This document shows, in pieces, positions 9,660 through 64,000 of a stretch of DNA of 64,000 nucleotides (position 1 is the first letter of the stretch; the number at the start of each line of letters is the position of its first letter). This stretch comes from an uncultured Anaerolineales bacterium (GTDB lineage Bacteria > Chloroflexota > Anaerolineae > UBA1429). Position numbers and translations under genes: made by a program. The stretch lies in the NCBI GenBank assembly GCA_964407215.1, contig CAYOUT010000006.1, positions 87,437 through 151,436 of the forward strand, given 5' to 3'. The notes below the pieces were generated by a model. It ran no database searches. It was not told the origin of the DNA and was given only the letters and a program-made list of their open reading frames with translations.

Positions 9660-10511
9660 ATGCTATCGTTGGCTACCGACTATCTCGCGAGCAGCGGCAA
9701 CCCCGGGCCCTACCTGCGGCGCATCGCCGAGGCGGGGTTTTCGCACATCCACTGGTGCCACCAGTGGGACACCGATTTCCTCTACGCGGATTCTGAGGTG
9801 GAGCAGATCGTACGCTGGATGCGCGAGTACGGCCTGGCGCTCACCGATCTGCACGGCTCGCAGGGCCGCGAGAAGGGCTGGGTGGCCGCCGACGAGTACG
9901 CGCGGCTGGCCGGCGTAGAGTTGGTGCTGAACCGGGTGCGCATGGTGGCCCGCCTGGGCGGCGACGTGGTGGTGATGCACCTCCCCAGCGGCCCCGAGGC
10001 CACCGAGGATCCCGAGGGCTCCGCCCTCCACTGGGAGCGGGTTCACCGCACGCTGGACGCTCTGGAGCCGCCGTGCCGCTCCTACGGCGTGCGCATCGCG
10101 CTGGAGAACCTCAACATGCCGCACTTTGCCACCATCCGGCGGGTGCTGGATCGCTACGACGCCGGGTTTGTGGGCGTCTGCTATGATTCGGGCCACGGCA
10201 ATTTGGGCGGCGACGGCCTGGCGGCCCTGGACGGCATGAAGGATCGCCTCATCTCGGTGCACCTGCACGACAACAACGGCGCGGGGGATCAGCACAAGCT
10301 GCCCTTCATGGGCACTATCGATTGGACGCGCCTCGCGGGGATACTCGCTGCGTCGTCGTACGACAAGTGGATCAGCATGGAAGTGTCGATGACCAACAGC
10401 GGCTTTGAGGACGAGGGGGCGTTCCTGCAGCGCGCGGTGGAGGTGGGCAACCGCCTGACCCGCATGGTGTGGGGCACAGGAGGCGCCAGCGCAGGAGGCG
10501 CCGGCGCGTAG
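9660..10511 (+). CDS. sugar phosphate isomerase/epimerase (xylose isomerase-like TIM barrel)
   Basis: AAGGAGG SD. Motifs …IALENLN…, …VCYDSGHGNLGGD…, …LISVHLHDNNG… are typical of the AP-endonuclease-2 / xylose-isomerase-like fold. Confidence 0.85.
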   Translation: MLSLATDYLASSGNPGPYLRRIAEAGFSHIHWCHQWDTDFLYADSEVEQIVRWMREYGLALTDLHGSQGREKGWVAADEYARLAGVELVLNRVRMVARLGGDVVVMHLPSGPEATEDPEGSALHWERVHRTLDALEPPCRSYGVRIALENLNMPHFATIRRVLDRYDAGFVGVCYDSGHGNLGGDGLAALDGMKDRLISVHLHDNNGAGDQHKLPFMGTIDWTRLAGILAASSYDKWISMEVSMTNSGFEDEGAFLQRAVEVGNRLTRMVWGTGGASAGGAGA

Positions 10512-15673: not shown

Positions 15674-16906
15674 ATGCTGTGTTCGATTGATAATGGTGAC
15701 GTTGTTGTGCGATTGTTGGTGTTGGCCGGCTCGGAAGAGGATGCTGAGCCGTTGTTGAAGGAGATAGAGCGCGCGGGGCTGGAGCTCGCCAGTTGCCGCG
15801 TAGAGACGATAGAGACCCTGCCGGCCGCGCTACAGCAGGGGACGTGGCACCTCGCGCTGCTGGACGAGGGCGCGCCCGGCGGCGTGGACGACGCCCTGCG
15901 CCTGTTGCGGGCGGGCGCCCCCGCACTGCCCGCTGTGGTGGTGGGCGCCAAGCCCAGCGAGGAGGCGGCCGTCCGCGCTCTGCGGGCGGGCGCGCAAGAC
16001 TATGTGAGCCGGCAGCACTTGGAGCGCCTGGGCTCTGTTGTGAGATGCGCCCTGTGCACGGACGAGACAGGGCCGGATGGGGCGCCCTGTGCTGGGCGCG
16101 CGAGATGCGAGCCCAACACGCACAAGATGGAGGCGCTGGCACGTTTGGCGCACGGTGTGGCCCATGATCTGAATAACCTGCTGACCATCATCAAGGGCTA
16201 CTCGGCTATGGCACACGACGCGCTGCCAGAGTATCACCATGCGCGCCGCGATATGGCCGAGGTGATGATGGCGGCGGATCGCGCCACCGCCCTGAGTCGG
16301 CAACTCACGCTGTTGGCATCGCGGCAGCCCCTCGCCCGGCGCGTGTGGGATCTCAACGAGCTGGTGTTGGGCGCACACAAGATGCTCTGCGAGCTAGTGG
16401 GAGGGGGCGAGGATGGGGCCGGCGACGAGCGCGCCATCCACCTGGAGCTCGATCTCTCGCCCGACACACTGCCGGTGGCCGTGGATGCCGCGCAGCTGCG
16501 CCGGGTGTTGGCCTCGCTCGCCCGCAACGCCCGCGACGCCATGCCCGACGGCGGCCAATTGGCCATTCGCACGCGCCGGAGGCGGCCGGACGACAGGCTC
16601 GGTTGTGGGGGCTCCGGTGTGATCCCGGGCGAGCGCGCCCAGTTGGTGGTGCGGGATACGGGCGCCGGCATGAGCGCCGATGTGCTGGAGCACCTGTTCG
16701 AGCCGTACTATACCACCAAGCGGGGCCACGGCTTGGGGCTGGGCCTGGCCGTCGTCTATGGTATTGTGAGGCGGCACGACGGTTGCATCGCGGTGCAGAG
16801 CCTGCCGGGGCTCGGCACCACCATCAGCATCTGCCTGCCACGGGCGCAAGAGGGGGGGCAGGCTCCGCCGCCCGGCTCGCTCCGTACAGAGGGAGGAAGA
16901 TCATGA
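15674..16906 (+). CDS. sensor histidine kinase with N-terminal receiver-like (possibly degenerate REC) domain
   Basis: AAGAGG SD and ATG at 15674. HisKA H-box ([16 protein letters not shown]) and HATPase_c (…[24 protein letters not shown]…[11 protein letters not shown]…). The first ~120 aa resemble a CheY-like fold but the conserved acidic pocket and Lys are not obvious. The stop overlaps the next gene (ATGA). Confidence 0.8.
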
Positions 16907-17817
16907 AGATCGGGTTCGTCAGCGCCATCCTGCCGGATCTCTCGTTGGAACAGGTGTTGGCCTTTGCGGGCCAACAGGGTTTTGCCACAGTGGAGCTGAT
17001 GTGCTGGCCGGTGGGCCGCGCCGAGCGCCGCTACGCCGGCGTGACGCATCTGGATGTGACAGAGGTCGACGAGGCCGGCGCGCGCTATGTGCAGGAGCAG
17101 CTCGTGCAGAGCCGCGTGAGCATCTCGGGCTTGGGCTACTATCCCAACCCGCTCACGCCGGTTCTCGCCGACCGCCAGCGCTTCACCGACCATCTGCGCC
17201 GCGTGATGGACGCCGCCGCTACGCTGGGCGTGGAGGTGGTCAACACGTTTGTGGGGCGCGACCCCGCTCGGCCGGTGGAGGCCCAGTGGGACGATTTTAT
17301 GGAGGTGTGGCCGCCCCTCATCGAGTTCGCCGAGCAGCGCGGCCTAAAGGTGGGGATCGAGAACTGCCCCATGCTGTTTTCGTTGGACGAGTGGCCCGGC
17401 GGGACCAACATGGCCTCCTCGCCGGCCATCTGGCGGCGGATGTTCGAGCTGATCCCCAGCCCCGCTTTTGGCCTCAACTACGACCCGTCGCACATGATCA
17501 TCCAGCACATGGACGAGGTGCGGCCCATTCGCGAGTTCGCCTCGCGCATCGTCCACGTGCACGCCAAAGACCAGCGCATAGACTATGCCCTGCGCGACGA
17601 GGTGGGCGTGTGGGGCCTGGGGTGGTATATCCCCAAGCTGCCCGGCCTGGGCGAGGTGCGTTGGGGCGACTTTTTTGCCGCCCTCACCGACGTGCGCTAC
17701 GAGGGGGCCGTCTGTATCGAGGTGGAGGACCGCGCCTACGAAGACTCGCTCAGCGCCCGCCAGCGCGCGCTGATCCAATCCAAACGGTATCTGGATCAGT
17801 TCCAGGCCTGGGGGTAG
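16903..17817 (+). CDS. sugar phosphate isomerase/epimerase (xylose isomerase-like TIM barrel)
   Basis: Start [10 protein letters not shown] with a GGGAGGAAG SD. The ATG overlaps the TGA of the upstream kinase (ATGA). Motifs …VGIENCPM…, …[11 protein letters not shown]…, …VHVHAKD…. Confidence 0.85.
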
Positions 17818-18738: not shown

Positions 18739-18788
18739 CGGCACGGCGCCGCCGGGGTTGCGCGCGGGGATGCGACGTGATGATATAT

Positions 18789-43789: not shown

Positions 43790-44911
43790 TTACCACGCCC
43801 GCGAGTCGGGCACGTCGAGCCAGCGGCCGCCCTCCAGGATCGAGCGCTGGCTTACGAGGCCGGGCAGCGTCATGTCCATCGCCTCGTGGATCCCCACCAT
43901 AGGCGGATGCTCGCCTCGCAGAGCCTCGCAAAAGTCGAGCAGCTCGAACAGGTCGCCGCCGCCGTGCCCCACGCGCTCGGCCAACGCCGCGCCCTCTCGC
44001 CAAAAGCTTGGCAGATGCTCCTCAAAGTCGAACAGGTCGCGCCAGGCGTTGGGGTCGTCAGAGTGGGCGCGCAACCACACGCGGTGCCGTTCGCCGGCGG
44101 TACGGGCCGACTCGTAACAGCCGTCGGTGCCCTGCAGGCAGTGGTTGTGCATGGCGTGGGGCCGGTCCGACAGCATATCCACTCGGATCTTGGCCAGGCC
44201 GCCGCTTTGCATCTTGCAGAGCATGACACACGAGTCCTCGTTCTCGTACAAGTCGCCGCGCGGGTCGCGATAGTGGTGGCCGCTGCCGGCGCAACAGACC
44301 GATACCACGCGCTCACCGGGCATCCACTGCAGGATGGGCCCCAGGCTGTGAGTGCCGTAGGTTACCCCGTTAATGCCCGTCTGCCATTTGCGGCGCCAGG
44401 GCGTGATCTCGTTGAGCTCTTTGAGCTCGTGGATATACTCGCCCTCTGCATAATAGGGCGTGCCGAACAGCCCCTGGCGCGAGAGCTCGCGCACCAGCAT
44501 GTTGGGACGGGTAAAGATATAGTTCTCGGCCATGGCGTAGAGGGCGCCGGTCTCGCGGGTGGCGATTACCAGCTCGCGGCACTCTTCGATGGTGACGCCG
44601 GCGGGCACTTCGCTGAGCACCGCCACCCCCTGGCGCAACGCGTCGAGGGCCTGCGGCACGTGCAGCGGCATCGGTGTGCCGATGAGCACCGCGTCCAGGT
44701 CCGAGCGTGCCAGCATGTCGTGGTAATCGGCGTAGGCCTCGTCGGCCCCCAAGCGCGCGCGCACATCGTCTAACGACTCGGCGTTGGGATCGGGCAGATC
44801 ACAAATGGCGCGCACGCGCACACCCTCCAACGCCTCAAAGACCTGCCTGAAGGAGCCGCCGCGCCCTCGCGCGCCGACGATGCCAATGTGTAGCGGTTCT
44901 CGGGTCGCCAT
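43790..44911 (-). CDS. Gfo/Idh/MocA family oxidoreductase
   Basis: MATREPLHIGIVGARGRGGSF (Rossmann) plus a C-terminal dimerisation domain. Starts 3 nt after the upstream URO-D-like gene stop. Confidence 0.85.
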   Translation of the reverse strand: MATREPLHIGIVGARGRGGSFRQVFEALEGVRVRAICDLPDPNAESLDDVRARLGADEAYADYHDMLARSDLDAVLIGTPMPLHVPQALDALRQGVAVLSEVPAGVTIEECRELVIATRETGALYAMAENYIFTRPNMLVRELSRQGLFGTPYYAEGEYIHELKELNEITPWRRKWQTGINGVTYGTHSLGPILQWMPGERVVSVCCAGSGHHYRDPRGDLYENEDSCVMLCKMQSGGLAKIRVDMLSDRPHAMHNHCLQGTDGCYESARTAGERHRVWLRAHSDDPNAWRDLFDFEEHLPSFWREGAALAERVGHGGGDLFELLDFCEALRGEHPPMVGIHEAMDMTLPGLVSQRSILEGGRWLDVPDSRAW

Positions 44912-44914
44912 GGG

Positions 44915-46063: not shown

Positions 46064-46208
46064 GCGAACCTCCTGGGCGGGTGTTGGGGGCAAGATAGCG
46101 CAGGGCGGCGCAACATGCAAGGCGGGGCGCGGGGCGGCATGGGCCGGGCAAAGTCCCCGGCCGGTTTACGGGATGCTCGCCGCCACGCCGCGCTCCGCCG
46201 CAGGGGGG

Positions 46209-54095: not shown

Positions 54096-55829
54096 TTAGC
54101 GCTCCACCGCCAGCGCGCGCACCCGCAACGTGTGGCCCGCCGCGCCGCCGTGTTGCCGCACGCGCAGCTCGGCGCCATCGGCCAGCGCGCTCGCCGCGTA
54201 GAATGCGCCCACCCAAGAGATGCCGGCCCAGATGGGCACGTCCGGCAGGATGCGGAGCGGCGCTATGGGGCGCCCCCCAACCGTGAGCTCGATGTGCACC
54301 TGCTCGCGCGAGGCGGGCTCCGTAGGGCGCTGGCCCTCGCGTGTCGTCTCTTGGCCGAACCGCACCGGCAGGCCGCCGCCACCCACACCCGAGGAGTCGG
54401 TTGCGCTGTGAGCCTGCGCAAACACAACCACCTCGTCAGCCTGGGGAGGGGCACCGCGCCACACACCGGTGAGCTCGCCGGGCCCGGTGGGGGCGAAAGC
54501 GATATCCAGCGGCCGCATGCATCGCGGTACGGGGCAATCGGCGGCGGGCGTTAGCGCGAGGTCGGCGCTGGCGTAGGCGCCCAGCCCGATGACGGCCATC
54601 TGCTCGGGCGCAAGCTCCACCAGCAGCGCGCCCTCGCCAGCGATCTGTACGGCGGCATCGGGCCCCGCGTCGGCGTACAAGGCCGTCGCTCGGGCGAGGC
54701 CGGGCAGCGCCAGCTCGATCTGCTGGGAGGTTCGCGAGCCGTTCACCAAGGAGAGCAGGCCACGCGCCGCACCGCCCGTGAGGCAGCCGTGCCAGGGCGC
54801 TACGCCGGGCTCTCCCCCCAACCAAGCGGTGCTCAGCCCCCGGCCAAAGGCGTCGAAATAGAGGCGCCGCGCCGCCGCCATAAAAGCCACGTCGCCGTCC
54901 GCCAGCAGGGTGGGGTCGCCGTAGTAGAGATCGCGCCGGCCGCCGCGCGCCAGATGGGCCAGGTAGGTGCGCCGGAAGCCGTGGGCGCCCTGGTAAAAGC
55001 TGGTGTTGGTGCCGCCCACCATGCAGCCGTGGTCATCTATGCGCTCCATGGGGAAGCCCAGCCGGCTCAGAAGCCACACTTGGTGATCTTGGAAGGCGTC
55101 GATGGAGCGGCGCAGGTCGGTGCGCGGCAGGTCGCTGGGGCGCGGATCGCCCGAGTAGACGTAATCGAACACCTCGAGCCACGAGAGATCAAAGCCGGGG
55201 TGCGTGGGCGAGCCCATGGGGCGCGACAGGTAGCCCGGCCAGCGTTCGATGCCGTTGTAGGCGATGATCACCAGGTCGGGGTATTCGGCGCGCAGGCGCG
55301 AGAGGATGCTGCGCAGGGCGGCGCCGTTGGCCTGCCCGGCCTCTTCGGGCGTGGCCCAGCCGCAGCCGGGCGGCCGCGCAGAGAGGTTGGCGAAATCGAG
55401 CTTGAAGAGGCGCACGCCCCACGTTTCCAGCGCGTGGCGCCAGCCGGCCTCGAGAGAGGGGCCGTAGGGGCCGTAGGCCAGGCTGTGGGCCCGCCGCTCC
55501 GGGTCGTAGCTGGGGGCCCATTCGGCCACCTGCAAATGGCTGCCGGAGAGGTCGAACCAGAGCCCCGGCAGCATCCCCAGCTCGCGGATGCGCGCCAAGG
55601 CCGGCGCAAAGCCCCGCGGCCAGTGGGGGCGTTTAAAGGCGGTGTACGGCTGGCCCGGGTCGAACCAGAAGGCGTCCAGCAAATAGTAATCGAACCCCAC
55701 GCCGTGGCGCGCCCGCCAGCCCGCCAGGGTGTCGAGGGCGGTCATCGTCATGGCCTCGTCGAGCTCGACGCGGTCTCCCAGTTCGTCGTGAAAGGCCCAA
55801 TCGCAGTAGATGGAGAAGGGACGTTGCAT
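54096..55829 (-). CDS. putative clan GH-D (GH36/GH27-like) glycoside hydrolase
   Basis: Start MQRPFSIYCDWAFHD with an AGGAG SD. …FDYYLLDAFWFD… (compare the DDGWF motif) and …VRLFKLDFANL… (compare the nucleophile K.D motif of alpha-galactosidases). Track ORF extends to 56006 with R/W/A-rich junk. Confidence 0.5.
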   Translation of the reverse strand: MQRPFSIYCDWAFHDELGDRVELDEAMTMTALDTLAGWRARHGVGFDYYLLDAFWFDPGQPYTAFKRPHWPRGFAPALARIRELGMLPGLWFDLSGSHLQVAEWAPSYDPERRAHSLAYGPYGPSLEAGWRHALETWGVRLFKLDFANLSARPPGCGWATPEEAGQANGAALRSILSRLRAEYPDLVIIAYNGIERWPGYLSRPMGSPTHPGFDLSWLEVFDYVYSGDPRPSDLPRTDLRRSIDAFQDHQVWLLSRLGFPMERIDDHGCMVGGTNTSFYQGAHGFRRTYLAHLARGGRRDLYYGDPTLLADGDVAFMAAARRLYFDAFGRGLSTAWLGGEPGVAPWHGCLTGGAARGLLSLVNGSRTSQQIELALPGLARATALYADAGPDAAVQIAGEGALLVELAPEQMAVIGLGAYASADLALTPAADCPVPRCMRPLDIAFAPTGPGELTGVWRGAPPQADEVVVFAQAHSATDSSGVGGGGLPVRFGQETTREGQRPTEPASREQVHIELTVGGRPIAPLRILPDVPIWAGISWVGAFYAASALADGAELRVRQHGGAAGHTLRVRALAVER

Positions 55830-55839
55830 CGGCGTGCTC

Positions 55840-56733
55840 CTATGGGGCATCCGGCCAGTACTTGGATGCCAGCTCGCGGGCGGCCACGACGCTGCGCAGC
55901 GTCTCGGGCTCGCCATCGCCCAAGTATTCGATGGCCACATGGCCCGTGTAGCCGCGCTCCAGGAAGGTGCGCAGGATCCAATCCAGGTCCAGCGTGCCCT
56001 CGCCAAAGGGCACCTGGATTCGCCCCGGGGCGGCGTCTCGCAGGTGTACGTGAGCGGCCGCGTCCATCAGGGGGATGGCGTCGCGCGGGTCGATCTCTTG
56101 CGCGGCGAGATGCGACGGGTCGTAGGCCAGGCGCAGGCCGGGCACCGCATCGAGCAGCCACAGGGCGCCGTCGAGGGTCTCGGCCACCGAATCGATATGG
56201 TTCTCTAGCGCCAAGACCACGCCGGCCTCGTCCGCGATGGCCACCATCTCGCGCAGCGATGCGGCGGTGTCGTCCATGACGCTGGCCAGCGGGCGGGTGG
56301 GGTCTATCTGGCGCGGCTGCAGCGAGGCCACGGCGATGCCCATGTCGCGCATAAAGCGCACGATGGCGCGTGTCTCGGCGTCGCGGGCGGCGCAGGCCTC
56401 CGGCGAGCGGTCGTAGGTTTGCGGCGAGACGCCGGTGTTGATGGCGCCCAACGCGAGACCGGCGCGTTGCAGGGCGGCCCGCGTGCGCGCCAGCACGCCG
56501 TCATAGTCGGTGACCAGCTCGGACGGGTGCACGTGGTTCCAGCCGTCGACGGCCAGCAGGTCGACCGAGGCGAAGCCGAGGCCGGCGATGGCGTCGAGCG
56601 CCGCTTGCAGCGGCGACTTGTTGACTGCTGTGGTAGAACAGAGGATAGACAGCGCGGTGCCTCCTTTCGTGTGCGGGCCAGCGTCAGGGGTCGGTAACTC
56701 TGGCTCGGTTGGCGGCGTGTGATGGCGAGCCAT
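55840..56733 (-). CDS. sugar phosphate isomerase/epimerase (xylose isomerase-like TIM barrel); start uncertain
   Basis: …LALENHIDS…, …LAYDPSHLAAQEID…, …HVHLRDA…. The only ATG (56733) lacks an SD, whereas a strong AAAGGAGG lies 25 codons inside, followed by CTG (…GGAGGcaccgcgCTG TCT ATC…). The true start may be non-canonical. Confidence 0.7.
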   Translation of the reverse strand: MARHHTPPTEPELPTPDAGPHTKGGTALSILCSTTAVNKSPLQAALDAIAGLGFASVDLLAVDGWNHVHPSELVTDYDGVLARTRAALQRAGLALGAINTGVSPQTYDRSPEACAARDAETRAIVRFMRDMGIAVASLQPRQIDPTRPLASVMDDTAASLREMVAIADEAGVVLALENHIDSVAETLDGALWLLDAVPGLRLAYDPSHLAAQEIDPRDAIPLMDAAAHVHLRDAAPGRIQVPFGEGTLDLDWILRTFLERGYTGHVAIEYLGDGEPETLRSVVAARELASKYWPDAP

Positions 56734-56800
56734 TCGGGCGGCTCAGCCGGACACTTTCGATGGATCGCCTGGCCCGGCTGAGCGTCATTACACCACGAGC

Positions 56801-57871
56801 TTACGAGGGGAAGGTGCCGTCCTCTACCATGGCCAGGAACGGGTTGTCGGGGATGTCGGCCGGGAAGCGCACGATGCCCCGGCGCCGCGACGACTCGTAA
56901 ATCCCCATCATGATCTCCATGGTGGCGCGCCCGTTCTCTCCGCTCAGCGGGTGCGGGGCGCCCGTCTCGATGGATTTGATGACATCCTGCACCTCCAGGG
57001 CGATGGCGCCCGGCTTGGTAAAGATGTCCACCGGCACCACTTCTACGTCGCCGCCGCGCAGGATGCGCACGAACCAGCGATCCTCCTCGGGGTCGTAGCC
57101 GTCGCCCGAGACTTCGATGGTGCCCGTCTCCCCGTGGATGGCGAACGCGTGATAGTTCAGCGCGGCGTCGTCCCAAGCGGGGTTGATGCGAACGTCCGGG
57201 TCGCGCGACACGCGGCCCCAGATCAGGTAGGCGTAGGTGCCGTTGTCAAAGGCGAGATAGGCGTTGCCGGCCTCCTCGCAGCGGTGCCCAAAGTAGACAT
57301 AATCAGAGTGGCCGTCGATCTGGCCGATGAGATGGGTGACTTTGGGCTCGCCCATGAGGTGCATGAGCATGTTGATAGTGTGGGTGTGGTCCGTCATGAG
57401 GCACTGGTACTTGCCCCAACCCTCGCCAAAGCGCACCTTGCCGATGGCGCCCTGGCGGATCAGGTCGCGCGCGCGGGCGTACTGCGGCGAGTAGTAGCGC
57501 TGATGGCTGACGGTGAGCACGGCGCCGTTGGCGCGGCAGGCCTCGATCATGCGGTCGGCCTCGGGCAGGTTCATGGCCATCGGCTTTTCGCAGATGATCC
57601 CTTTGACCCCCGCCTCGGCGGCGGCCACGACGGCGGCGCAGTGCAGCTGCTCCGCGGTGACCACCGAGACCAGGTCGGGCCGCACCTCTTTGAGCATGAC
57701 GTTGAAATCGGCGTATTTGCCCTGCATGCCGAACGATTCTTCGTACTGGTCCAGCGCCTCGGGCGCGATATCGGCCCCGGCGACGAGGGGGATGCCCAGT
57801 TCCAAGAACGAGTGGGCGTGGCCTCGGCCCATGCGTCCACACCCGATGATGGCGGCACGATAGTCGGACAT
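56801..57871 (-). CDS. Gfo/Idh/MocA family oxidoreductase
   Basis: Start MSDYRAAIIGCGRMGRGHA with an AGGAGG SD. …EKPMAMNLPEADRMIEAC… is typical of the family. Confidence 0.85.
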   Translation of the reverse strand: MSDYRAAIIGCGRMGRGHAHSFLELGIPLVAGADIAPEALDQYEESFGMQGKYADFNVMLKEVRPDLVSVVTAEQLHCAAVVAAAEAGVKGIICEKPMAMNLPEADRMIEACRANGAVLTVSHQRYYSPQYARARDLIRQGAIGKVRFGEGWGKYQCLMTDHTHTINMLMHLMGEPKVTHLIGQIDGHSDYVYFGHRCEEAGNAYLAFDNGTYAYLIWGRVSRDPDVRINPAWDDAALNYHAFAIHGETGTIEVSGDGYDPEEDRWFVRILRGGDVEVVPVDIFTKPGAIALEVQDVIKSIETGAPHPLSGENGRATMEIMMGIYESSRRRGIVRFPADIPDNPFLAMVEDGTFPS

Positions 57872-58098
57872 TGTGTTGCCTCCTGCGTTACGGAAAGGAT
57901 GCGTGAGCGGCGAGCAGGTGCCACCGCCGCGCCGCCCCAAAAGCGTATACAGTGGGCCCGATCGGGTAGGGCGGGTTGTGTGCCCTTTGGGGCCAGGGGC
58001 GCAAGCACACGCCCGGCCCGAGGGCACCCACCCAGGGGTGCAACGCGTGCGCCCCTGGGTGCGCGGTGAGATCTGTCTCGTGCCTCTCGAAACAGGCG

Positions 58099-59085
58099 TT
58101 ACTTGCTATGGCGGGCGACGATGTCGTCGCGCAGTTTAAAGGCGTACTCGGCGCTGTGCCACATGCGCGAGGCCATCACCATGGGCACGTCGTAGCTCTT
58201 GAACTCCTCGGGGCGCGGATGCATGCCCGCTTCGAGCTGTTTGCGGCCTTTTTCCAGGAACTGGAAGAACTTGGCCATTTTGGTGGGCGTGAGGTCGTCA
58301 AAGCTCTCGAGGAACGCCTCGTCGTACATGGGGATGGCGATAAAGCCAAAGCCATCCTCGATGTTGAGGTTGATATCCGGGTTGTGCTGGTAGAGCAGCT
58401 CGGTGATGGTGGGAAGATCCACCAGGCCGGTGCCCAGCGGGGCGCCGCCCTGCCAGTTGTACCCCTCGGGCGTCGCGTAGACGCAGGTGTCTTTGTAGTG
58501 CGTCGTCTTGGCGTACGGTGCGAGAACGCGCGCCGCCTCCACTGGGTCCTCCATCATGCCCAGGGCGTTGGCGGTGTCGAGGTTCACGCCGATGCCGGGG
58601 GAGTTGACCTGTGTCATCATGTTGGCCAACTCGGTGTAGGTCAGGTCCACGTGCAGCTCCATGGTCACCACCACGTTGTGCTCTTCGGCTATAGGGGCCA
58701 GCTTGCTGAGCACCTCGGTGGTCATCTTGTACTGCTCGGCAAAGGTGGGGGAGGCCATGGTGCGCTCTTTTAACAGGCCAAAGCAGGTGTTGAGGGTGGG
58801 AGAGCCCATCTCGGCCGCCAGCGGGAAGAGCGGCTTCCACGACTCGACCAAGTCGTCGACCGACTTGCCCGAATCCCGCGGGTTGACGCCGCTGCCACCC
58901 AGCTCCACGTACATATCGTGGGCCTGTAGCTTGTCCATAAAGCGCTTGCGCAGGTCGGCGTCCTTGAGGAAGGCCTGCGAGCCGAGCTGCAGTCCCTCGA
59001 GCCGATAGTCGATGGCCTTTTGCAGGAGGCCCATCGAATCCAGGTTCCAAGAACTGAAGGAAATAGTGTCCAGTCCAACGCGCAT
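58099..59085 (-). CDS. sugar phosphate isomerase/epimerase (xylose isomerase-like TIM barrel)
   Basis: AAGGAG SD. …VVTMELHVDL…, …GVNLDTANALG…, …HYKD…. Confidence 0.85.
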   Translation of the reverse strand: MRVGLDTISFSSWNLDSMGLLQKAIDYRLEGLQLGSQAFLKDADLRKRFMDKLQAHDMYVELGGSGVNPRDSGKSVDDLVESWKPLFPLAAEMGSPTLNTCFGLLKERTMASPTFAEQYKMTTEVLSKLAPIAEEHNVVVTMELHVDLTYTELANMMTQVNSPGIGVNLDTANALGMMEDPVEAARVLAPYAKTTHYKDTCVYATPEGYNWQGGAPLGTGLVDLPTITELLYQHNPDINLNIEDGFGFIAIPMYDEAFLESFDDLTPTKMAKFFQFLEKGRKQLEAGMHPRPEEFKSYDVPMVMASRMWHSAEYAFKLRDDIVARHSK

Positions 59086-59137
59086 GATGTTCGATTCTCC
59101 TTGTCTGCTGAAAAACGGTCTTTACGCCCGGCCGGTG

Positions 59138-60154
59138 TTACAGATCGCCGTTGGCGATCATAGCCTGTAAGGGATTATCCAGCACATCGATGGGCAGCGT
59201 CAAGCGGCAGCGCCGGCGAGAGGATTCGAAAATCGCCACGATGATCTCCAGCGCCGCACGGCCCGATTCGCCGCTGAGGATGTGGTTGGGGATATCGCCC
59301 TCGATCCAACGCATCAGGTCGCGCATGTACATGCCGAACGGGTTCATGACGCTGCTCTGGTCCACCTCGTGGAGCACCCAGCCGGCCTGCTGGCCGTTGC
59401 AGATGCGCCAGCGCTCCTCGCTGTCGCCACCGATCTCGATGCGGCCCTCGGTGCCCTGCAGGGTGATGCGCTGGTAGGCGGGCTGCGGCGAGACGTCTCC
59501 CGTCTGCACGATGCCGCGCACGCCGCTGGCAAAGCTGAGGAAAGCGAACGCCGCATCCTCCACGTCGTGGCCGAAGCGGCTGTTGCCGCGCTTGCGCTCG
59601 ATCTGCCCCAGCACCCAATCCACCGGGGAGTCGTCTACAAAGAAGCGCATCAGGTCGAGGCTGTGGGTGGCGTCGGTAAAGAGGTCGCCACGGCACAGGC
59701 TCTGTACCTCCACCAGCTCGCCGATGGCGCCGCTATCGAGCGCAGCCTTGGCCTGGGTGTAGCGCAGGTTGTAGCGCCGCTGATGGCCCACCACGAGCTT
59801 GGTGCCCGACGCGGCGCAAGCCTCCACCATGCGGTTGGCGTCGCTGCGGGTGAGGGCCATCGGCTTTTCGCAGGCGATCCCCTTGACGCCGGCCTCGGCG
59901 GCGGCCACCACCATATCGGCGTGCAGGGGCGGCCAGGTGCAAATGCTGACGATATCGAGCCGCTCTTTGGCGAGCATCTCGATGTAATCGCTATAGAGCG
60001 CGGTGCCCGGCCACTGCTCGCCGAACTTGTCCAGCGCCGCCTGCGAGACATCCGCTGCAGCGACGACCTGGGCCTCCGGCAGGCTGGTGTAGCCGTGCAT
60101 GTGGGCGCGAGAGATGCCGCCCAGCCCAATCAACCCAACACGATACTCGGCCAT
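59138..60154 (-). CDS. Gfo/Idh/MocA family oxidoreductase
   Basis: MAEYRVGLIGLGGISRAHMHGY… with an AGGAGG SD. …ACEKPMALTRSDANRMVEAC…. Confidence 0.85.
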   Translation of the reverse strand: MAEYRVGLIGLGGISRAHMHGYTSLPEAQVVAAADVSQAALDKFGEQWPGTALYSDYIEMLAKERLDIVSICTWPPLHADMVVAAAEAGVKGIACEKPMALTRSDANRMVEACAASGTKLVVGHQRRYNLRYTQAKAALDSGAIGELVEVQSLCRGDLFTDATHSLDLMRFFVDDSPVDWVLGQIERKRGNSRFGHDVEDAAFAFLSFASGVRGIVQTGDVSPQPAYQRITLQGTEGRIEIGGDSEERWRICNGQQAGWVLHEVDQSSVMNPFGMYMRDLMRWIEGDIPNHILSGESGRAALEIIVAIFESSRRRCRLTLPIDVLDNPLQAMIANGDL

Positions 60155-60344: not shown

Positions 60345-63212
60345 TTACGTCATCGCCTCGCCAAGCTTGAGCGCCTCGAACACGCGGATGCGCGTGAGGA
60401 ACCAGATGACGCCCAAGTTGGTGGCGAAAGAGGTGACGAGCATGGCCAAGACAGCTTTGGCCACGTCGCCCCAGGCCATGGTCACCAGGAAGGGGGGCAC
60501 CAGATCGGCCGCGGTGTAGCCCACCTGCAGGAAGGGAATAAAGAGCTCGCTGGTGATGAGCCCCACATAGAGCCCCACGCCGATGCCCACTAGGGTGATG
60601 AGCGCCAACTCGCTGGAGAGCGACACGGCCAGCTGCCACGATGAGAGGCCGATGGCGCGGATCATGCCGAACTGGATGAAGCGCTGGCGGAACGAGAGCA
60701 GCGCATAGATCACCTGCGCCAACATGCTCAGCCCCACAGTGACGACAAAGCCCACCGAGAGAAAGCCGAACAGCCCTGTGCGCTCGGGGCGCGTCTGGGC
60801 GGCGGCGATCTGCACACGCGCATCCTGCGAGCTCATGATGCGGAACCCGATGCGCTCCAGGTCGTCCACCAGCGTTTCGAGATCCACCTCATCGGCCACG
60901 GAGAGCCACACATCGTAGGGCACTTCGCCGCCGATGTTCTCAAAGATGTAATCCAGGTTGGTCACAAAGATCGAGCCCTTGTCTGGCAGGGCGGTGGGAA
61001 AGTAGTGGATCACGCCGACGATGGTAAAGGGCACCGTCTTGTTGCCGGTGGAGAACAGGCCGGCCAAAGGGAGCGTATCGCCCAGGGTGAGGCCGGTGGC
61101 AGAGAGGACGTCTTCGCTCACCAGGATCCCGTCGCGGTGGGAGGCCAGGGCGTTCATCAACGCGCCCAGCGACTGGTCGGCGAAATCGGAGCGAAAGAAC
61201 CCCACTTGCGGAAAGTCGAGCCGGTCGATGCCGTACACATTGCCGACGGCGTAGCCGCTGGCGCGGGCCTGCCCTTTGAACTGGCCCACGCGGGCCACGG
61301 CGCGCACGCCTTGGGCGTTGAGGTGCTCTTGCACCGGCGCCATAAGGTACACCGGGCGCTCGTCGCTCGGCCCCTCGTCGTCCTCGGCGCCCGCAACGTC
61401 GCCCGGCTGCGATGCGATGGCCACGCCCTCGCGCAGGGCGACGTCCGCGCCCACGCGGTAGCGTATCTGGCTCACCACATTCTCATCCATGGTGCGCGCG
61501 GCCGAGGCGGTAAAGGTGCCCAAGCCCGTGGTGAGGATCAGGATCAGCAGCAAGCCTACGTGAGCGTACCCGGCGCGCGTGAGGTTGCGCATGGCCAACA
61601 ACAGAGATACGCCGCTGGTCTGCCCCACAATCCAACTGGGGAGCCACAGGAGCGCCGGAAAGATGCGTACACTCACCAACCCGGCCGCCAGGATGAACAG
61701 CGCCGGCGCCAAGAAGAGGAGCGGGTTGGAGAAGGGGCTCTCTTGCCGCCCCATCTGCAAAAACGCGATGCGGCCCTGGCCAAAGAGCTGGTAGTAGCCG
61801 TAGATGGCCACGGCCAGCAACAGCAGGTCGAGGTAGTAGCGCTGCCAAAAGGGCCGGTTGGTGGAGCGGGCCGATTCGGCGCGTGCGCCCACCACCGTCA
61901 TGCGCGAGGCGCCCACGGCGGGCAACACGGTGGCCAACATGGCGATGATCAGGCCGCCCAGCGCGTAGCGCAGCGCCGGCACGGTGATGGCGACGTTCAA
62001 CGGCTCGCGCGTGGTAAAAGAGAGAAAGCTGTAGGTGGCGCCGATGGCTTGGGCGATGTAGCGCCCCAGGATGGGGCCGATGACGATGGCCGCCGCCCCC
62101 AGGAGCGCAGCTTGAAAGATATAGATCCCGAACACTTGCATGCTGCTGGAGCCGCGCGACTTGAGCATGGCGATCTCGAGGCGCTGCCGAGCCACCGATC
62201 CGCTGGCCACCAGTACGATGAAATAGATCACCAGCCCGATAAAGGGGATCAAAAAGCTGACCAACTGGATGGCCTGGGCCGAGGCGGCGCGCTGGTAGCG
62301 CAGCAACGCCGACACGGGCGAGACGGTGAGGCCGGTGCCGGGCAGCAGCACGTTGATGCGCGAATTGACGCGGTTGATGCGCCGCAAGAGGCCGGGCACG
62401 TTCTCGGCGCGGACGTGGCTGCCGTCGAACTCTTGGTACCACCCCAGGCTGTAGAGCGCATGGGGCACCCTGCCCGAGGCGGCCAGGGAGACGTACTGCG
62501 GCTCCAGCAGCAGGAAGGTGGTGTCGAACGCACTGGGCGAAACGTACCAGAACCTGGAGGTGGCATCTTTTACCTGCCACACGCCGACGATGCGCGCCTG
62601 CAGCTCCAGGCGGGGGCGCACGCCAGCCGCCGTCTCGCCGCCCTGGTCGAACAGCGTGATCAGCTCGCCCGGCTGCAGCCCCAAGTCCTGAGCCAGCTTC
62701 TGGCTGATGAGGACCTCCAGCGGCCCGTCCTCGGCCGCGGGCTGGGGCATGCCCCCTTCGACGACGGTGATCTGTTCCTCCAGGCCGCGGATGAACCCCA
62801 GGTTGCCGCGAGTCAGCAGCTCGCGAGCGGTGTACTGCCCGCCGGCGGGGTAGACGGCAAAGAGGTCGCTCTTGCCATAGTGCATATCCTGCGTCCGGCG
62901 CAGGCCCATGGCTTGGGGGAGGTTGGCAGCCATATACTGCCGCAACGCGTCATAGTTCTCCCAAGTGGCGCCCGCCGACGTGCCGCCGGTGTAGGTGTAG
63001 TGAAAGCCGTAGGTGGGCGCTGTGCTGGAGCGCTTGGAGAGCTCGCGGGCGAGAAGTTGCTGGTTTACGGCGTCCGTGTACATGGGGATGGCCGCCGTCA
63101 GAGCCACGAACGCGGCCCAGCCGAACAAGAGGCTCACGGTCAACGCGGGTTCGGCGAGCAGGCGAGCGAACACGAGACGCCATAACCCGGTGAATCTCAA
63201 AAGTGCGCGCAT
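60345..63212 (-). CDS. FtsX-like ABC transporter permease (two FtsX domains, MacB/YknZ-like, ~10 TM)
   Basis: 955 aa with a large extracytoplasmic domain after TM1 and two FtsX-type 4-TM bundles (…MLKSRGSSSMQVFGIYIF…, …MIRAIGLSSWQLAVSLSSELALI…). No adjacent ATPase in the window. Confidence 0.8.
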   Translation of the reverse strand: MRALLRFTGLWRLVFARLLAEPALTVSLLFGWAAFVALTAAIPMYTDAVNQQLLARELSKRSSTAPTYGFHYTYTGGTSAGATWENYDALRQYMAANLPQAMGLRRTQDMHYGKSDLFAVYPAGGQYTARELLTRGNLGFIRGLEEQITVVEGGMPQPAAEDGPLEVLISQKLAQDLGLQPGELITLFDQGGETAAGVRPRLELQARIVGVWQVKDATSRFWYVSPSAFDTTFLLLEPQYVSLAASGRVPHALYSLGWYQEFDGSHVRAENVPGLLRRINRVNSRINVLLPGTGLTVSPVSALLRYQRAASAQAIQLVSFLIPFIGLVIYFIVLVASGSVARQRLEIAMLKSRGSSSMQVFGIYIFQAALLGAAAIVIGPILGRYIAQAIGATYSFLSFTTREPLNVAITVPALRYALGGLIIAMLATVLPAVGASRMTVVGARAESARSTNRPFWQRYYLDLLLLAVAIYGYYQLFGQGRIAFLQMGRQESPFSNPLLFLAPALFILAAGLVSVRIFPALLWLPSWIVGQTSGVSLLLAMRNLTRAGYAHVGLLLILILTTGLGTFTASAARTMDENVVSQIRYRVGADVALREGVAIASQPGDVAGAEDDEGPSDERPVYLMAPVQEHLNAQGVRAVARVGQFKGQARASGYAVGNVYGIDRLDFPQVGFFRSDFADQSLGALMNALASHRDGILVSEDVLSATGLTLGDTLPLAGLFSTGNKTVPFTIVGVIHYFPTALPDKGSIFVTNLDYIFENIGGEVPYDVWLSVADEVDLETLVDDLERIGFRIMSSQDARVQIAAAQTRPERTGLFGFLSVGFVVTVGLSMLAQVIYALLSFRQRFIQFGMIRAIGLSSWQLAVSLSSELALITLVGIGVGLYVGLITSELFIPFLQVGYTAADLVPPFLVTMAWGDVAKAVLAMLVTSFATNLGVIWFLTRIRVFEALKLGEAMT

Positions 63213-63309
63213 ATCCCTTCCAACATAAGTCTGGGCTCCGCTGTTCGGGACCCCATACAGTCGGTTTCGCTTCGGCCGGGCTCGTTTTTACACGGTACGC
63301 ACGAGCTCG

Positions 63310-63407
63310 CCGCCGGGCTGGCCAGGGGGTAAAGCCCCGGCACAGGTTCCTGGGCGTGCCAAGGGCACCCGGCAGACCCAGCCCGGTACTGCAGTGTCGG
63401 GCGCGCC
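63310..63407. repeat. ~100-nt structured intergenic repeat, copy 1
   Basis: CGCCGGGCTGGCCAGGGGGTAAAGCCCCGGCACAGGTTCCTGGGCGTGCCAAGGGCACCCGGCAGACCCAGCCCGGTACTGCAGTGTCGGGCGCGCC. Contains two hairpins. Confidence 0.7.
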
Positions 63408-63439
63408 CCCGCGCACGCACCCCATTCGGTGGCGCGCGG

Positions 63440-63537
63440 CGCCGGGCTGGCCAGGGGTTGAAACCCCTGGCACAGGTTCCTGGGCGTGCTGAGAGCACTC
63501 GGCAAACCCAGCCCGGTACTGCAGTGCCGGACGCGCC
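63440..63537. repeat. ~100-nt structured intergenic repeat, copy 2 (about 85-90% identical)
   Basis: Same order of motifs. Hairpin 2 differs by a compensatory pair (GUGCC-AAG-GGCAC versus GUGCU-GAG-AGCAC). Hairpin 1 is perfect in copy 2 (GCCAGGGG-uugaaa-CCCCUGGC). Ends at the stop codon of the permease gene. Confidence 0.7.
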
Positions 63538-63539: not shown

Positions 63540-64000
63540 TTAGACTTTGAGCGCGCCCGAGGCGAGGCCCTCGACGAACAGCCTGCTGGTAAAGGCGAAC
63601 AGGATGATCATCGGGATGGAGGCGATGACATAGCCCGCCATCAACGTACCCCAGCGCGTGTACATCTCGTTGCGGAACGCGTACAGGCCGATGGTCAGCG
63701 TCATGAGCTTTTTGGTGTTGACAGTGATCATGGGCCAGATCAGGTCGTTCCACGTGCTGGTGATGTGCATGATGGCCACCACACCCACGATCGAGTTGGC
63801 CAGCGGCATCGCCACCCGCAAAAAGGTAGAGATCTCGCTGGCGCCGTCGATGCGGGCCGCCTCGAATAGCTCCTCGGGCATCCCCTCAAAGAACGAGCGC
63901 AACACAAAGATGGCGAACACCTGCCCGCCCGCCATGTAGGGCAGCATCAGCACCCAGCGGGTGTTGAGCAACCCCAAGGAGTTCACCAACAGGAACGAGG
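63540..64000 (-). CDS. carbohydrate ABC transporter permease (MalG/UgpE-like), C-terminal part; gene continues beyond window end
   Basis: EAA loop (…FEAARIDGASEISTFLRVAMPLA…) and terminal TM helices. Open at the window edge. Confidence 0.8.
   Translation of the reverse strand, partial: SFLLVNSLGLLNTRWVLMLPYMAGGQVFAIFVLRSFFEGMPEELFEAARIDGASEISTFLRVAMPLANSIVGVVAIMHITSTWNDLIWPMITVNTKKLMTLTIGLYAFRNEMYTRWGTLMAGYVIASIPMIILFAFTSRLFVEGLASGALKV

Follow-up and report, generated by a model that had tools for sequence, protein, structure and literature searches.

The window, i.e. the whole stretch of 64,000 nucleotides analysed here, carries on its minus strand between positions 54096 and 60154 a string of five genes which, in the order of transcription, encode a Gfo/Idh/MocA oxidoreductase (GFO; g5), a xylose-isomerase-like TIM barrel (g4), a second GFO (g3), a second TIM barrel (g2) and a GH-D-like protein (g1; Table 1). 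The first-pass annotation had described this string, and Pfam searches bear it out, with all genes present and the families correct; equally real by Pfam are the further GFO genes at 2831 and 43790 and TIM-barrel genes at 9660 and 16903 that it had listed. A Shine-Dalgarno-like sequence lies upstream of each of the five operon genes, g5 and g4 are spaced by 52 bp and the g2 stop codon and g1 by 10 bp, and signal peptides are absent from all five proteins. The reading frame of g3 extends upstream to 58027, but its ribosome-binding site and Rossmann motif point to a start at 57871. For g2 the real start is probably a CTG, since alignments with homologues begin at residue 28-29 and AAAGGAGG lies ahead of this codon. 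The g1 frame extends upstream to 56006, and homologues of 575-580 aa fully cover the query from MQRPFSIY.

Table 1. Features of the 54-64 kb locus and the other GFO and TIM-barrel genes of the window
Feature	Position	Strand	Description
g1	54096-55829	-	577 aa; clan GH-D-like (beta/alpha)8 and C-terminal beta-sandwich domains (AlphaFold/Foldseek)
g2	55840-56652 (ORF to ATG 56733)	-	xylose-isomerase-like TIM barrel, ~270 aa, second subfamily; PF01261 E 8.9e-26; probable start CTG 56652
g3	56801-57871	-	Gfo/Idh/MocA NAD-type oxidoreductase, 356 aa; PF01408 E 7.9e-21
g4	58099-59085	-	xylose-isomerase-like TIM barrel, 328 aa; AP_endonuc_2 (PF01261) E 8.9e-20
g5	59138-60154	-	Gfo/Idh/MocA NAD-type oxidoreductase, 338 aa; PF01408 E 4.4e-24, also PF22725, PF02894
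Tandem FtsX/MacB-like membrane protein	60345..63212	-	955 aa; Pfam FtsX x2 and MacB_PCD
Two tandem ~103-nt repeats	63305..63537		GC-rich hairpins, REP-like; permease-FtsX gap
CUT1-type sugar ABC permease, C-terminal part	63540..64000	-	BPD_transp_1 PF00528 E 1.6e-11; gene continues past window end
GFO gene	2831..4003	-	true start ATG 4003; between DegT aminotransferase gene and GH141-like beta-helix gene
GFO gene with Glyco_hydro_109_C	43790..44911	-	PF21252 45.7 bits (cut-off 27); co-directional with URO-D-like gene
PF01261 TIM barrel	9660..10511	+	adjoins GHL6/GH42M gene and HpcH aldolase gene
PF01261 TIM barrel	16903..17817	+	4-bp overlap with histidine-kinase gene stop

Upstream of g5 follows the gene of a tandem FtsX protein, for which the hydropathy profile indicates about 9-10 transmembrane helices and two external domains of ~250 aa. 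Its orthologues (371-994 bits) immediately precede g4-type TIM genes in loci L085, L087, L088, L089, L095, L096, L099, L100 and L105, and besides the window about seven distinct related loci have a gene for such a ~950-aa protein; no ABC ATPase gene was found near it in the related-locus neighbourhoods examined. The repeats that separate it from the permease gene belong to families D14 and D16 (85-88% identity), give an RNA fold on the minus strand with z = -3.7 and have zero matches in an Rfam search. At the position corresponding to the permease, ahead of the FtsX and TIM genes, related loci carry an SBP_bac_8 and two BPD_transp_1 genes. The conserved unit is larger than the five-gene operon: a CUT1 importer belongs to it, as does the tandem FtsX protein here and in the roughly seven related loci mentioned.

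The last gene of the operon stands apart. The g1 protein belongs to a family that Pfam does not model and has zero sequence matches in Pfam, NCBIfam and the PDB; its homologues number 74, and the loci in GTDB genomes 299. The earlier description of g1 as GH-D-like is correct at the level of the fold, as its AlphaFold model (pLDDT 92.3) best matches GH27/GH36 structures in Foldseek (3a21, 3.9e-15; 4fnp; 6phw). The likeness to these families of clan GH-D includes the domain order, a K-x-D motif past beta4 and an invariant Asp past beta6 (in g1 K143-x-D145 at the end of beta4 and D228, besides the likewise invariant D52/W55), whereas identity is 13-14% and the TM-score about 0.45. The Melibiase Pfam model matches the family below threshold in 7 of 39 members (best E 0.031). 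We regard g1 as a candidate retaining glycosidase. One homologue carries the source label 'alpha-amylase family protein'. Homologues of g1 seldom adjoin a GFO or TIM gene (directly at 1 of 80 loci, with one more at 4 kb) and their neighbours are heterogeneous; the link of g1 to the GFO-TIM genes is therefore lineage-specific.

Conservation of the oxidoreductase-TIM barrel pair

Orthologues of g4 (48-70% identity) nearly always adjoin a GFO. In counts that include some redundant loci, a GFO is adjacent to the g4-family TIM in 24 of 26 close (evaluable) loci and in 19 of 28 distant loci, as compared to none in 371 kb of flank lying more than 3 kb from the TIM gene across all loci searched. The pairing is beyond chance. 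Moreover, TIM barrels of the g2 type are fused to a GFO in two proteins (P0338 and P0419), and orthologues of g3 (56-58% identity) come after g4-type TIM genes in L084 and L085. Where the second oxidoreductase or TIM differs, related loci (L085-L088) carry an SDR and an IolE-like TIM, TIM284, and L084 has an additional Zn-ADH gene; the second oxidoreductase or TIM has been replaced non-orthologously, with all four roles still filled. Distant relatives of g4 adjoin GFOs whose best NCBIfam match is LgdA (296 bits) or the BT_2158 glycoside 3-dehydrogenase (150 bits), and plasmid-borne distant homologues occur that have no GFO partner.

The first-pass annotation had spoken of recurrent pairing of the two families next to glycoside hydrolases. 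For the operon at 54-60 kb this stands: the pair is conserved, and it is accompanied by a sugar ABC importer and by hydrolases that vary with the lineage (GH-D-like in the window, GH78-like in L108 and L086, GH1 in L086, GH130/43-like in L114). It holds for this operon only, because the other four genes are singletons that are not paired with each other and have different neighbours. Nor does an organism-wide 3-keto strategy, which had been read from the density of GFO and TIM genes, follow from the window.

One might also assume that the genes share no pathway: two very large families would have expanded in a Chloroflexota-like genome that degrades glycans, with which the four GFOs and four TIM barrels of the window would accord, and the operon members would be mere neighbours. 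Or else one might regard the GFOs as WlbA-like biosynthetic sugar-nucleotide 3-dehydrogenases. Several g5 homologues are indeed named 'UDP-N-acetylglucosamine 3-dehydrogenase' by JGI, and g5 gives full-length alignments with NF040723 (110 bits) and with 3q2k (81 bits), labelled just 'oxidoreductase' in the PDB, which we take to be Bordetella WlbA. However, adjacency that is kept among orthologues of such divergence, the fusion proteins, the tight spacing of the genes and the importer upstream all argue against this explanation, as does the absence of aminotransferase, glycosyltransferase and nucleotidyltransferase domains from the operon in domain searches, and we hold it to be very improbable.

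Predicted chemistry of the four enzymes

The two oxidoreductases are paralogues (37% identity) that both retain the catalytic lysine motif EKP (residues 96-98 of g5 and 95-97 of g3). Over its full length g5 is best matched by sugar 3-dehydrogenases of the WlbA type and by inositol dehydrogenases, none of these matches reaching the family cut-off, and g5 is a candidate sugar dehydrogenase or keto-sugar reductase. Oxidation at C3, as previously asserted, finds no anchor here: nothing fixes the position. The NCBIfam models for LgdA (66-75 bits, cut-off 650) and BT_2158/2159 (19-30 bits, cut-offs 750 and 650) score g5 and g3 far below their cut-offs, as does the best match, IolG (122 bits for g5, 89 for g3; cut-off 355); DgpA matches g5 with 79 bits in a PDB sequence search, and where DgpA and LgdA from the PDB match g5 and g3, the Rossmann domain alone is aligned. 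No operon protein reaches one of the characterised clades Lgd, Dgp, BT2158/9 and Iol, nor the NCBIfam equivalog cut-offs (LgdA, BT_2158, BT_2159, IolG, IolE).

The g4 and g2 proteins are mutually unrelated PF01261 barrels, each bearing a predicted metal site. In g4 (AlphaFold model pLDDT 95.8) this site comprises E143, D170, H196 and E243, accompanied by H145 and K198-D199, and E143-x-H145, D170, H196-x-K198-D199 and E243 are invariant or nearly so across the family. The g2 family has as invariants E150-x-H152, H181, H203, R205 and E242, with D178 invariant or nearly so. C- and O-glycoside beta-eliminases are reported to have an [E/H]-x-H motif (PMC10628242), to which the E-x-H and H-x-K positions of g4 correspond. 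The E-x-H motif is not exclusive to glycoside lyases; its position beside the metal site would fit enolisation or elimination chemistry. The g4 subfamily is uncharacterised, and we regard g4 as a candidate for a metal-dependent enzyme that eliminates from, hydrates or isomerises a keto-sugar. Nothing marks the barrels as 3-keto-glycoside lyases: known lyases or hydratases of 3-keto-glycosides resemble them no more than epimerases, isomerases and dehydratases do, and comparing folds fails to tell lyase, hydratase, epimerase and isomerase relatives apart. DgpC matches the g4 profile with only E 0.005.

Could the barrels instead be epimerases or isomerases? In a scheme like that of E. coli YcjQ/YcjR/YcjS, an imported glycoside or sugar would be oxidised and re-reduced by the GFOs, while the TIMs would invert or shift a stereocentre beside the ketone; a rare sugar would become a common one without cleavage of a glycosidic bond, which would be left to g1 or other hydrolases. 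In the PDB profile search g2 comes nearest to UlaE, an epimerase, and IolI, an isomerase (67 bits each), ahead of Art22 (60), AtHYD (41; E 1.5e-9) and IolE (40); in L084 the g5 orthologue is immediately preceded by a Zn-ADH gene, which recalls YcjQ; and a CUT1 transporter context surrounds ycj too. Ketose 3-epimerases, however, use as bases two metal-ligand glutamates, and the His two residues past the first metal ligand that g4 and g2 both have is missing in UlaE, as seen in alignment to the g2 profile matches. Furthermore, YcjR shows negligible sequence similarity (19 bits with the g2 profile, none with that of g4), and a single TIM barrel would suffice for epimerisation, whereas two different ones are present. 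We consider this scheme unlikely, if credible.

Catabolism of a cyclitol, carbocycle or sugar acid, with inositol-type dehydrogenases, an IolI-like inosose isomerase and an IolE- or AsbF-like dehydratase, would accord with the IolG, IolI and IolE matches and with the IolE-like TIM284 (86-88 bits) of related loci. AsbF, deposited as probable 3-dehydroshikimate dehydratase, shares the E-x-H and H-x-K positions of g4. Its R102, which presumably binds the substrate carboxylate, is replaced by a conserved N99 in g4, though, and the scores fall far short of the cut-offs for IolG and IolE (290). Neither the locus nor its relatives showed a domain typical of IolB, IolC, IolD, IolJ or IolA, the transporter is of the CUT1 oligosaccharide type rather than the Peripla_BP_4 inositol type, and glycoside hydrolases recurrently adjoin the pair. 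Such a pathway thus appears distinctly improbable to us.

A putative keto-sugar elimination route and its known counterparts

The operon looks like an uncharacterised member of a known keto-intermediate route of sugar breakdown. From its gene content and order, the retained motifs and the conserved neighbourhood we tentatively suggest, somewhat short of calling it probable, that the region from the permease at the window edge to 54096 is a single catabolic locus by which a glycoside or oligosaccharide is imported and broken down via keto-sugar elimination steps. Speaking against it are the scores below the equivalog cut-offs, the PDB matches confined to the Rossmann domain, the nearness of g2 to UlaE and IolI, the wider occurrence of E-x-H, the rarity of GFO or TIM neighbours among g1 homologues and the plasmid-borne g4 homologues that lack a GFO partner. 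One GFO would introduce a ketone into the sugar by oxidising a secondary hydroxyl, most likely that at C3. The metal of one TIM barrel would polarise this ketone while the His two residues past the first metal ligand takes the alpha proton, and the C1 substituent would be expelled by beta-elimination. The other TIM barrel would then hydrate or isomerise the resulting enone and the second GFO reduce the ketone, regenerating NAD+, for a net non-hydrolytic 'hydrolysis'. The part of g1 would be to shorten or otherwise prepare the imported glycan through ordinary retaining hydrolysis.

The combination of two GFOs and two PF01261 barrels with a sugar transporter matches published pathways whose four enzymes carry out an oxidation, a beta-elimination, a hydration and a reduction (PMC7676230, PMC10066097, PMC10628242, bioRxiv 10.1101/2024.03.25.586180). 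In DgpA with DgpB/DgpC and in CarA/CarB/CarC, oxidation at C3 is the task of a GFO (DgpA), and the 3-keto-glycoside is then cleaved by a PF01261 barrel that has E-x-H; their barrel requires, however, a small DgpB/CarC subunit. The ORF list of the operon holds no gene of this type, and a C-deglycosylase reading is therefore unlikely. E. coli YcjQ/YcjR/YcjS (3-keto-D-glucoside 4-epimerase, PDB 6WN6) likewise combines a GFO and a PF01261 barrel with an adjacent CUT1 transporter, 3-keto-glycoside substrates and, as in L084, a Zn-ADH. Bacteroides BT2156-2160 and Alistipes AL1-AL5, which perform broad non-hydrolytic glycoside cleavage, share two GFO-like oxidoreductases and a PF01261 lyase (bioRxiv 10.1101/2024.03.25.586180). 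The GlycDH operon of Agrobacterium tumefaciens includes the O-glycoside beta-eliminase AtOGE (8BVK) and the hydratase AtHYD (8RO4); it resembles ours in its four-enzyme logic, its two 'sugar phosphate isomerase/epimerase' barrels and a metal site whose first ligand is followed two residues on by a His (PMC10628242).

Finally, LgdA/LgdB1/LgdB2/LgdC of Bacillus smithii and Paenarthrobacter unite two GFOs and two PF01261 TIM barrels that differ from each other (about 275 and about 325 aa) with an adjacent sugar ABC transporter (PMC7676230, PMC10066097). No Lgd protein is among the listed sequence or fold matches; different from the Lgd systems, GH-D-like and tandem FtsX genes are attached here and levoglucosan is not indicated as the substrate. 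In both, the second TIM is lineage-variable, LgdB2 alternating with LgdB3 there as g2 does with the IolE-like TIM284 here.

The operon, its importer and the rest of the window

The first-pass annotation had described a five-gene string on the minus strand of the window, and Pfam families and gene orientation bear this out. The genes g5, g4, g3, g2 and g1, named here in order of transcription, are co-directional, each is preceded by a Shine-Dalgarno-like sequence, and the intergenic gaps measure 52, 227, 148 (or 67) and 10 bp in a window of about 67% G+C. By Pfam, two nicotinamide-dependent oxidoreductases of the Gfo/Idh/MocA (GFO) family, g5 and g3, and two PF01261 TIM barrels, g4 and g2, stand together in this one operon (see table). 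The annotated ATG of g2 at 56733 is doubtful and translation probably starts at CTG 56652, because the alignments of g2 homologues begin at residue 28-29 of the open reading frame and AAAGGAGG lies 9 nt 5' of this CTG. The start of g1 was placed at MQRPFSIY since homologues of 575-580 amino acids span the whole query. None of the five proteins carries a signal peptide, and their chemistry would therefore be cytoplasmic and act on an imported substrate.

A linked sugar uptake system is indeed present, as a BPD_transp_1 permease gene at the window edge and as solute-binding protein and permease genes in related loci. Directly 5' of g5 is the gene of a 955-aa protein that combines two FtsX domains with a MacB-type external domain and has some 9-10 transmembrane helices; the permease gene is located beyond it. 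In six loci with g4 homologues (L085, L087, L088, L089 (Caldilineaceae), L099, L105) an SBP_bac_8 gene and two permease genes are found upstream, and the order is binding protein, two permeases, large FtsX protein, g4-type TIM barrel and GFO, optionally followed by an SDR and a second TIM barrel. The binding-protein gene belonging to the importer at the window edge is located past the window end; its orthologues occupy 1458-2927 in L085 and 2355-3830 in L089. The junction of FtsX and TIM barrel genes recurs in L095, L096 and L100. In all, nine sampled loci, about seven of them distinct, keep a tandem FtsX protein of about 920-967 amino acids between a CUT1 permease and the TIM/GFO genes; the related loci of 17-19 kb contain no ABC ATPase gene near the FtsX gene. 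The gap between permease and FtsX genes in the window is filled by two tandem repeats of about 103 nt (85-88% identical) with CCAGGGG...CCCCTGG hairpins and a strong predicted fold (z = -3.7). A partial third copy occurs elsewhere in the window, and a scan of the window, these repeats included, gave no Rfam match.

Positions of the operon genes and of further features in the window and in related loci (L handles: loci with g1 or g4 homologues in other genomes or metagenomes)
Feature	Position	Strand	Length	Annotation
g5	59138-60154	minus	338 aa	Gfo/Idh/MocA, PF01408, 4.4e-24
g4	58099-59085	minus	328 aa	xylose-isomerase-like TIM barrel, PF01261, 8.9e-20
g3	56801-57871	minus	356 aa	Gfo/Idh/MocA, 7.9e-21
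g2	55840-56652 or 56733	minus	~270 aa	PF01261, 8.9e-26
g1	54096-55829	minus	577 aa	no Pfam match
Tandem FtsX protein, window	60345-63212	minus	955 aa	5' of g5
Tandem FtsX protein, L085	5173-7941
Tandem FtsX protein, L089	6034-8937
Permease, window	63540-64000			BPD_transp_1
Tandem repeats, window	63305-63537		~103 nt each	partial third copy at 43663-43696
URO-D-like gene, window	44915-46120
URO-D-like gene, L004	8943-9980
URO-D-like gene, L005	8933-9991
URO-D-like gene, L009	3889-5094
URO-D-like gene, L054	8812-9933
URO-D-like gene, L084	2293-3351
358-aa protein, window	19153-20229	minus	358 aa	no Pfam match
Homologue of 358-aa protein, L065	8700-9854
Homologue of 358-aa protein, L097	4923-5993
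Homologue of 358-aa protein, L102	3274-4344
Repeat region, window	17851-19115			short palindromic and 36-nt tandem repeats
Transposase-like gene, window	18160-18738	plus	192 aa	IS200/Y1-like
Sensor genes, window	48897-50369; 50819-52834			share 49599-49898 and 51533-51832 (300 nt, 97% identical)
Ig-like repeat protein, window	31081-34368	plus	1095 aa	FixG_C / NPCBM_assoc type
Further carbohydrate genes, window	4191-6302; 7323-9548; 12876-15368; 38387-40057			GH141-like beta-helix, GHL6+GH42M, GH2 beta-mannosidase-like, 556-aa sugar-binding protein

The first-pass annotation had spoken of a recurrent pairing and had listed further members of both enzyme families elsewhere in the window. The four further genes named (2831, 43790, 9660 and 16903) are genuine family members by Pfam, yet all four are unpaired and have other neighbours, so that the recurrent pairing comes down to the one operon. 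The GFO gene named at 2831 actually starts at 4003 and is flanked by genes for a DegT aminotransferase and a GH141-like beta-helix protein, the TIM barrel gene at 9660 has a GHL6/GH42M gene on one side and an HpcH aldolase gene on the other, and that at 16903 follows a histidine-kinase gene. The GFO gene at 43790 (region 43790-46120, minus strand) is located directly downstream of a URO-D/MtaA-like gene, and its product carries a GH109-type domain at the C-terminus (45.7 bits; cut-off 27). GH109 enzymes are NAD-dependent glycosidases, and this protein may therefore be a single-protein oxidative glycosidase.

Genes for glycan utilisation are plentiful in the window as a whole. It also encodes a 1095-aa protein with about six tandem Ig-like repeats of roughly 321-327 nt. 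The IS200/Y1-transposase-like gene and the dense repeats around it resemble a REP-associated tyrosine transposase and the REP array that belongs to it, and the 300-nt stretch common to the two neighbouring sensor genes suggests that a PAS segment was recently duplicated or underwent gene conversion.

Conservation and family placement of the oxidoreductases and TIM barrels

Related loci were collected from annotated contigs and a metagenome scan for g4 homologues, and their open reading frames were typed with the window proteins as queries. A GFO gene adjoins the g4-family gene in 24 of 26 evaluable close loci (at least 33% identity) and in 19 of 28 more distant ones, whereas the same search found none in 371 kb of flanking sequence more than 3 kb away. 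The pairing thus exceeds chance; the counts are somewhat inflated because some loci are duplicates (L084=L094, L099=L105, L114~L115). Moreover, the representative library contains natural fusions of a GFO with a g2-type PF01261 domain, P0338 (654 aa) and P0419 (595 aa). Conserved adjacency and fusion both weaken the view that these genes share no pathway or serve a biosynthetic, WlbA-like role, which we consider very improbable.

The core of the locus consists of g4 and one GFO from the g3/g5 clade. The genes of L084, from a Chloroflexota MAG, run Zn-ADH, g5 (65%), g4 (60%), a second g4 (61%), g3 (58%) and g2 (46%). Herbiconiux ginsengi (L086) has a GH1 gene beside those for a g4 orthologue, a GFO and an IolE-like TIM barrel; a GH78, an aldo-keto reductase, a sugar ABC system and a protein of periplasmic-binding fold, probably of LacI type, are encoded close by. 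Elsewhere the pair is accompanied by GH78-like (L108), GH130/43-like (L114) or heparinase-like (L110) genes, and the second TIM barrel, g2 in the window, is IolE-like at 86-88 bits. These variants show that the second TIM barrel and the second oxidoreductase can be exchanged, and so can the accessory glycosidase.

Both oxidoreductases show the Rossmann N-domain and the alpha/beta C-domain of Gfo/Idh/MocA above the Pfam gathering threshold (PF01408/PF02894; 75-86 bits against 24) and retain the catalytic lysine motif EKP (residues 95-97 in g3, 96-98 in g5). At 37% identity they are the only clear paralogues here; the four TIM barrels of the window share at most 28% pairwise. Neither oxidoreductase could be placed in one of the clades whose C3 specificity is proven (LgdA, BT_2158, BT_2159, DgpA): g5 and g3 score 75 and 66 bits against the LgdA model of NCBIfam (cut-off 650) and 19-30 bits against those of BT_2158 and BT_2159 (cut-offs 750 and 650), and among PDB entries DgpA and LgdA match them over the Rossmann domain only, DgpA at 52-79 bits over the N-terminal domain. 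The best NCBIfam models for g5 and g3 are IolG (122 and 89 bits, cut-off 355) and then UDP-GlcNAc 3-dehydrogenase (110 and 76 bits, cut-off 450), and none of the four GFOs and four TIM barrels of the window exceeds any equivalog cut-off.

These IolG matches bear on an Iol/AsbF-type route for a cyclitol or a sugar acid, which we think distinctly unlikely. The IolG equivalog level is not reached (89-122 bits against 355), nor is that of IolE (g2 24 bits against 290, g4 without match), and the domains expected for iolB, iolC, iolD, iolJ and iolA were absent by Pfam from the window and six related loci. The absence of other iol genes weakens this route, as do the CUT1 transporter and the recurrent glycosidases.

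The TIM barrels g4 and g2 likewise lie above the PF01261 gathering threshold and have the (beta/alpha)8 fold; the g4 subfamily bears in addition a beta-hairpin and a C-terminal helical extension. By sequence, both barrels have metal ligands on beta5-beta8, and g4 has the canonical set E143, D170, H196 and E243, together with H145 and K198-D199. In g2, E150-x-H152, D178, H203 and E242 are invariant or nearly so within its family, where E150-x-H152, H181, H203, R205 and E242 are invariant. A His two residues past the first ligand ([E/H]-x-H) is the catalytic base of C- and O-glycoside eliminases (PMC10628242), and judged on sequence g4 (E143-L-H145) and g2 both have it. In the g4-family alignment 32 of 39 members carry E-x-H; the other seven have His at the E143 position and Ser or Ala at that of H145. 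In the profile alignment E-L-H and H-x-K of g4 stand opposite E-T-H and H-F-K of AsbF, whose deposited title is probable 3-dehydroshikimate dehydratase.

Sequence and profile searches of g1-g5 against the PDB gave superfamily-level matches only. The g4 profile is led by 3tva, Art22 and AsbF, with DgpC1 at E 0.005 only and AtOGE absent, and neither barrel resembles the known lyases and hydratases of 3-keto-glycosides more than it does other members of PF01261. Nearest to g2 are UlaE and IolI (67 bits each), followed by AtHYD (41) and IolE (40). A route that epimerises or isomerises a keto-sugar, of the YcjQRS type, is conceivable and deserves some weight, though we consider it unlikely; UlaE, an epimerase, lacks the His of the [E/H]-x-H motif in the g2 profile alignment. 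One g4 homologue bears the JGI name '3-oxoisoapionate decarboxylase', an unverified automatic label that offers a D-apiose lead and that no NCBIfam match backs.

Orthologues of g4 share 48-70% identity. Its plasmid relatives in Agrobacterium, Rhizobium and Salmonella (26-28%) have no GFO partner and say nothing on function. The GFOs beside distant g4 relatives have LgdA (296 bits) or BT_2158 (150 bits) as their best models, which is supportive but indirect evidence for the pathway proposed below.

The GH-D-like protein g1

No match to g1 was found in Pfam, NCBIfam or the PDB sequences. Its AlphaFold model, built from a 39-sequence alignment (pLDDT 92.3), shows beta-sandwich domains C-terminal to a (beta/alpha)8 barrel, and Foldseek places GH27/GH36 structures on top (E 4e-15 to 1e-11), led by the beta-L-arabinopyranosidase 3a21 (3.9e-15), AgaA and SpAga; the label 'GH-D-like' given to g1 at first reading was hence correct. 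TM-scores to GH27/GH36 structures are about 0.45 at 13-14% identity, and Pfam Melibiase gives only sub-threshold matches in 7 of 39 family members (best E 0.031). K143, D145 and D228 are invariant across the 39 sequences, at the ends of the predicted strands 141-145 and 223-225. On the predicted strands, K143-x-D145 ends beta4, D228 follows beta6 and the likewise invariant D52/W55 follow beta2, an arrangement that may fit the catalytic layout of clan GH-D, where the nucleophile Asp sits in a K-x-D after beta4 and the acid/base Asp after beta6.

In the protein database the family counts 74 clusters, and GTDB genomes hold 299 of its loci, in Chloroflexota, Planctomycetota, Verrucomicrobiota, Acidobacteriota and Bacteroidota, the closest matches being Chloroflexota MAGs (55-58% identity). 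A general link of g1 to GFO/TIM genes was rejected: among 80 sampled homologue loci they are adjacent in L007 only, where they lie directly upstream, and in L022 they are 4 kb away. The other neighbours are heterogeneous (beta-helix, PFK, EF-G, URO-D-like and GH63-like genes). g1 is thus one exchangeable accessory of the locus and would serve as an ordinary hydrolase that trims the substrate.

URO-D-like genes are found directly 5' of g1 homologues in several loci and also near GFO/TIM clusters. Two g4 loci carry homologues of a 358-aa window protein, and another lies directly 5' of a g1 homologue (318 bits).

Proposed pathway and known systems

The make-up of the locus, the residue evidence and the missing signal peptides make oxidation, elimination, hydration and re-reduction, with trimming by g1, the best reading of the g5-g1 locus, and we hold it tentatively, at somewhat short of even. 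An imported glycoside would undergo NAD-dependent oxidation, then elimination aided by metal and His, then hydration and finally re-reduction. Our confidence in this pathway is limited because every placement test failed or was indecisive. A C-glycoside deglycosidase (DgpBC/CarBC) would likewise draw on enzymes of this kind but is unlikely, since a gene for the DgpB/CarC-type small subunit (about 140 aa) is absent between and beside g5-g1, where the largest gap is 227 bp.

A wider picture would be that of an uncharacterised non-hydrolytic glycoside-processing locus of Chloroflexota-like and actinobacterial genomes, made up of a CUT1 importer, an orphan tandem FtsX protein and four enzymes: a g4-type TIM barrel and a GFO, plus one further TIM barrel and one further oxidoreductase. 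In it g4 would be an eliminase of a new subfamily, the FtsX protein would serve in substrate capture or extraction, and g1 would found a new family of clan GH-D; as a whole we regard this as doubtful.

Cleavage of glycosides by oxidation and elimination, in parallel to the classical glycosidases, has been recognised only in the last few years, from Firmicutes, Actinobacteria, Proteobacteria and Bacteroidota. The use of GFO enzymes and PF01261 barrels for such oxidative, non-hydrolytic processing is already published, and the g5-g1 locus is an uncharacterised member of that kind with divergent components; the g4 subfamily, the GH-D-like family of about 570 amino acids and the conserved orphan FtsX protein are unnamed by current resources. 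The locus thus offers a defined, conserved candidate for oxidative glycoside cleavage in a Chloroflexota-like lineage, and the binding protein of its transporter could reveal the substrate. If the chemistry holds true, annotation of the very large and generically labelled GFO and PF01261 families would improve; if it is not confirmed, the locus is another generic cluster of oxidoreductase plus sugar isomerase.

A close parallel to the proposed route is the levoglucosan pathway, in which oxidation at C3 by LgdA is followed by elimination (LgdB1), hydration (LgdB2) and reduction (LgdC) (PMC7676230). The same pathway logic applies to the Agrobacterium operon with the O-glycoside beta-eliminase AtOGE (PMC10628242) and to BT2156-2160 and AL1-5 of gut Bacteroidota (bioRxiv 10.1101/2024.03.25.586180). 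Like the levoglucosan system, the g5-g1 locus combines two Gfo/Idh/MocA enzymes with a sugar ABC importer and with two PF01261 barrels that are unrelated to each other, and just as the second barrel of that pathway differs among lineages (PMC10066097), so the second TIM barrel is exchangeable in the g4 loci.
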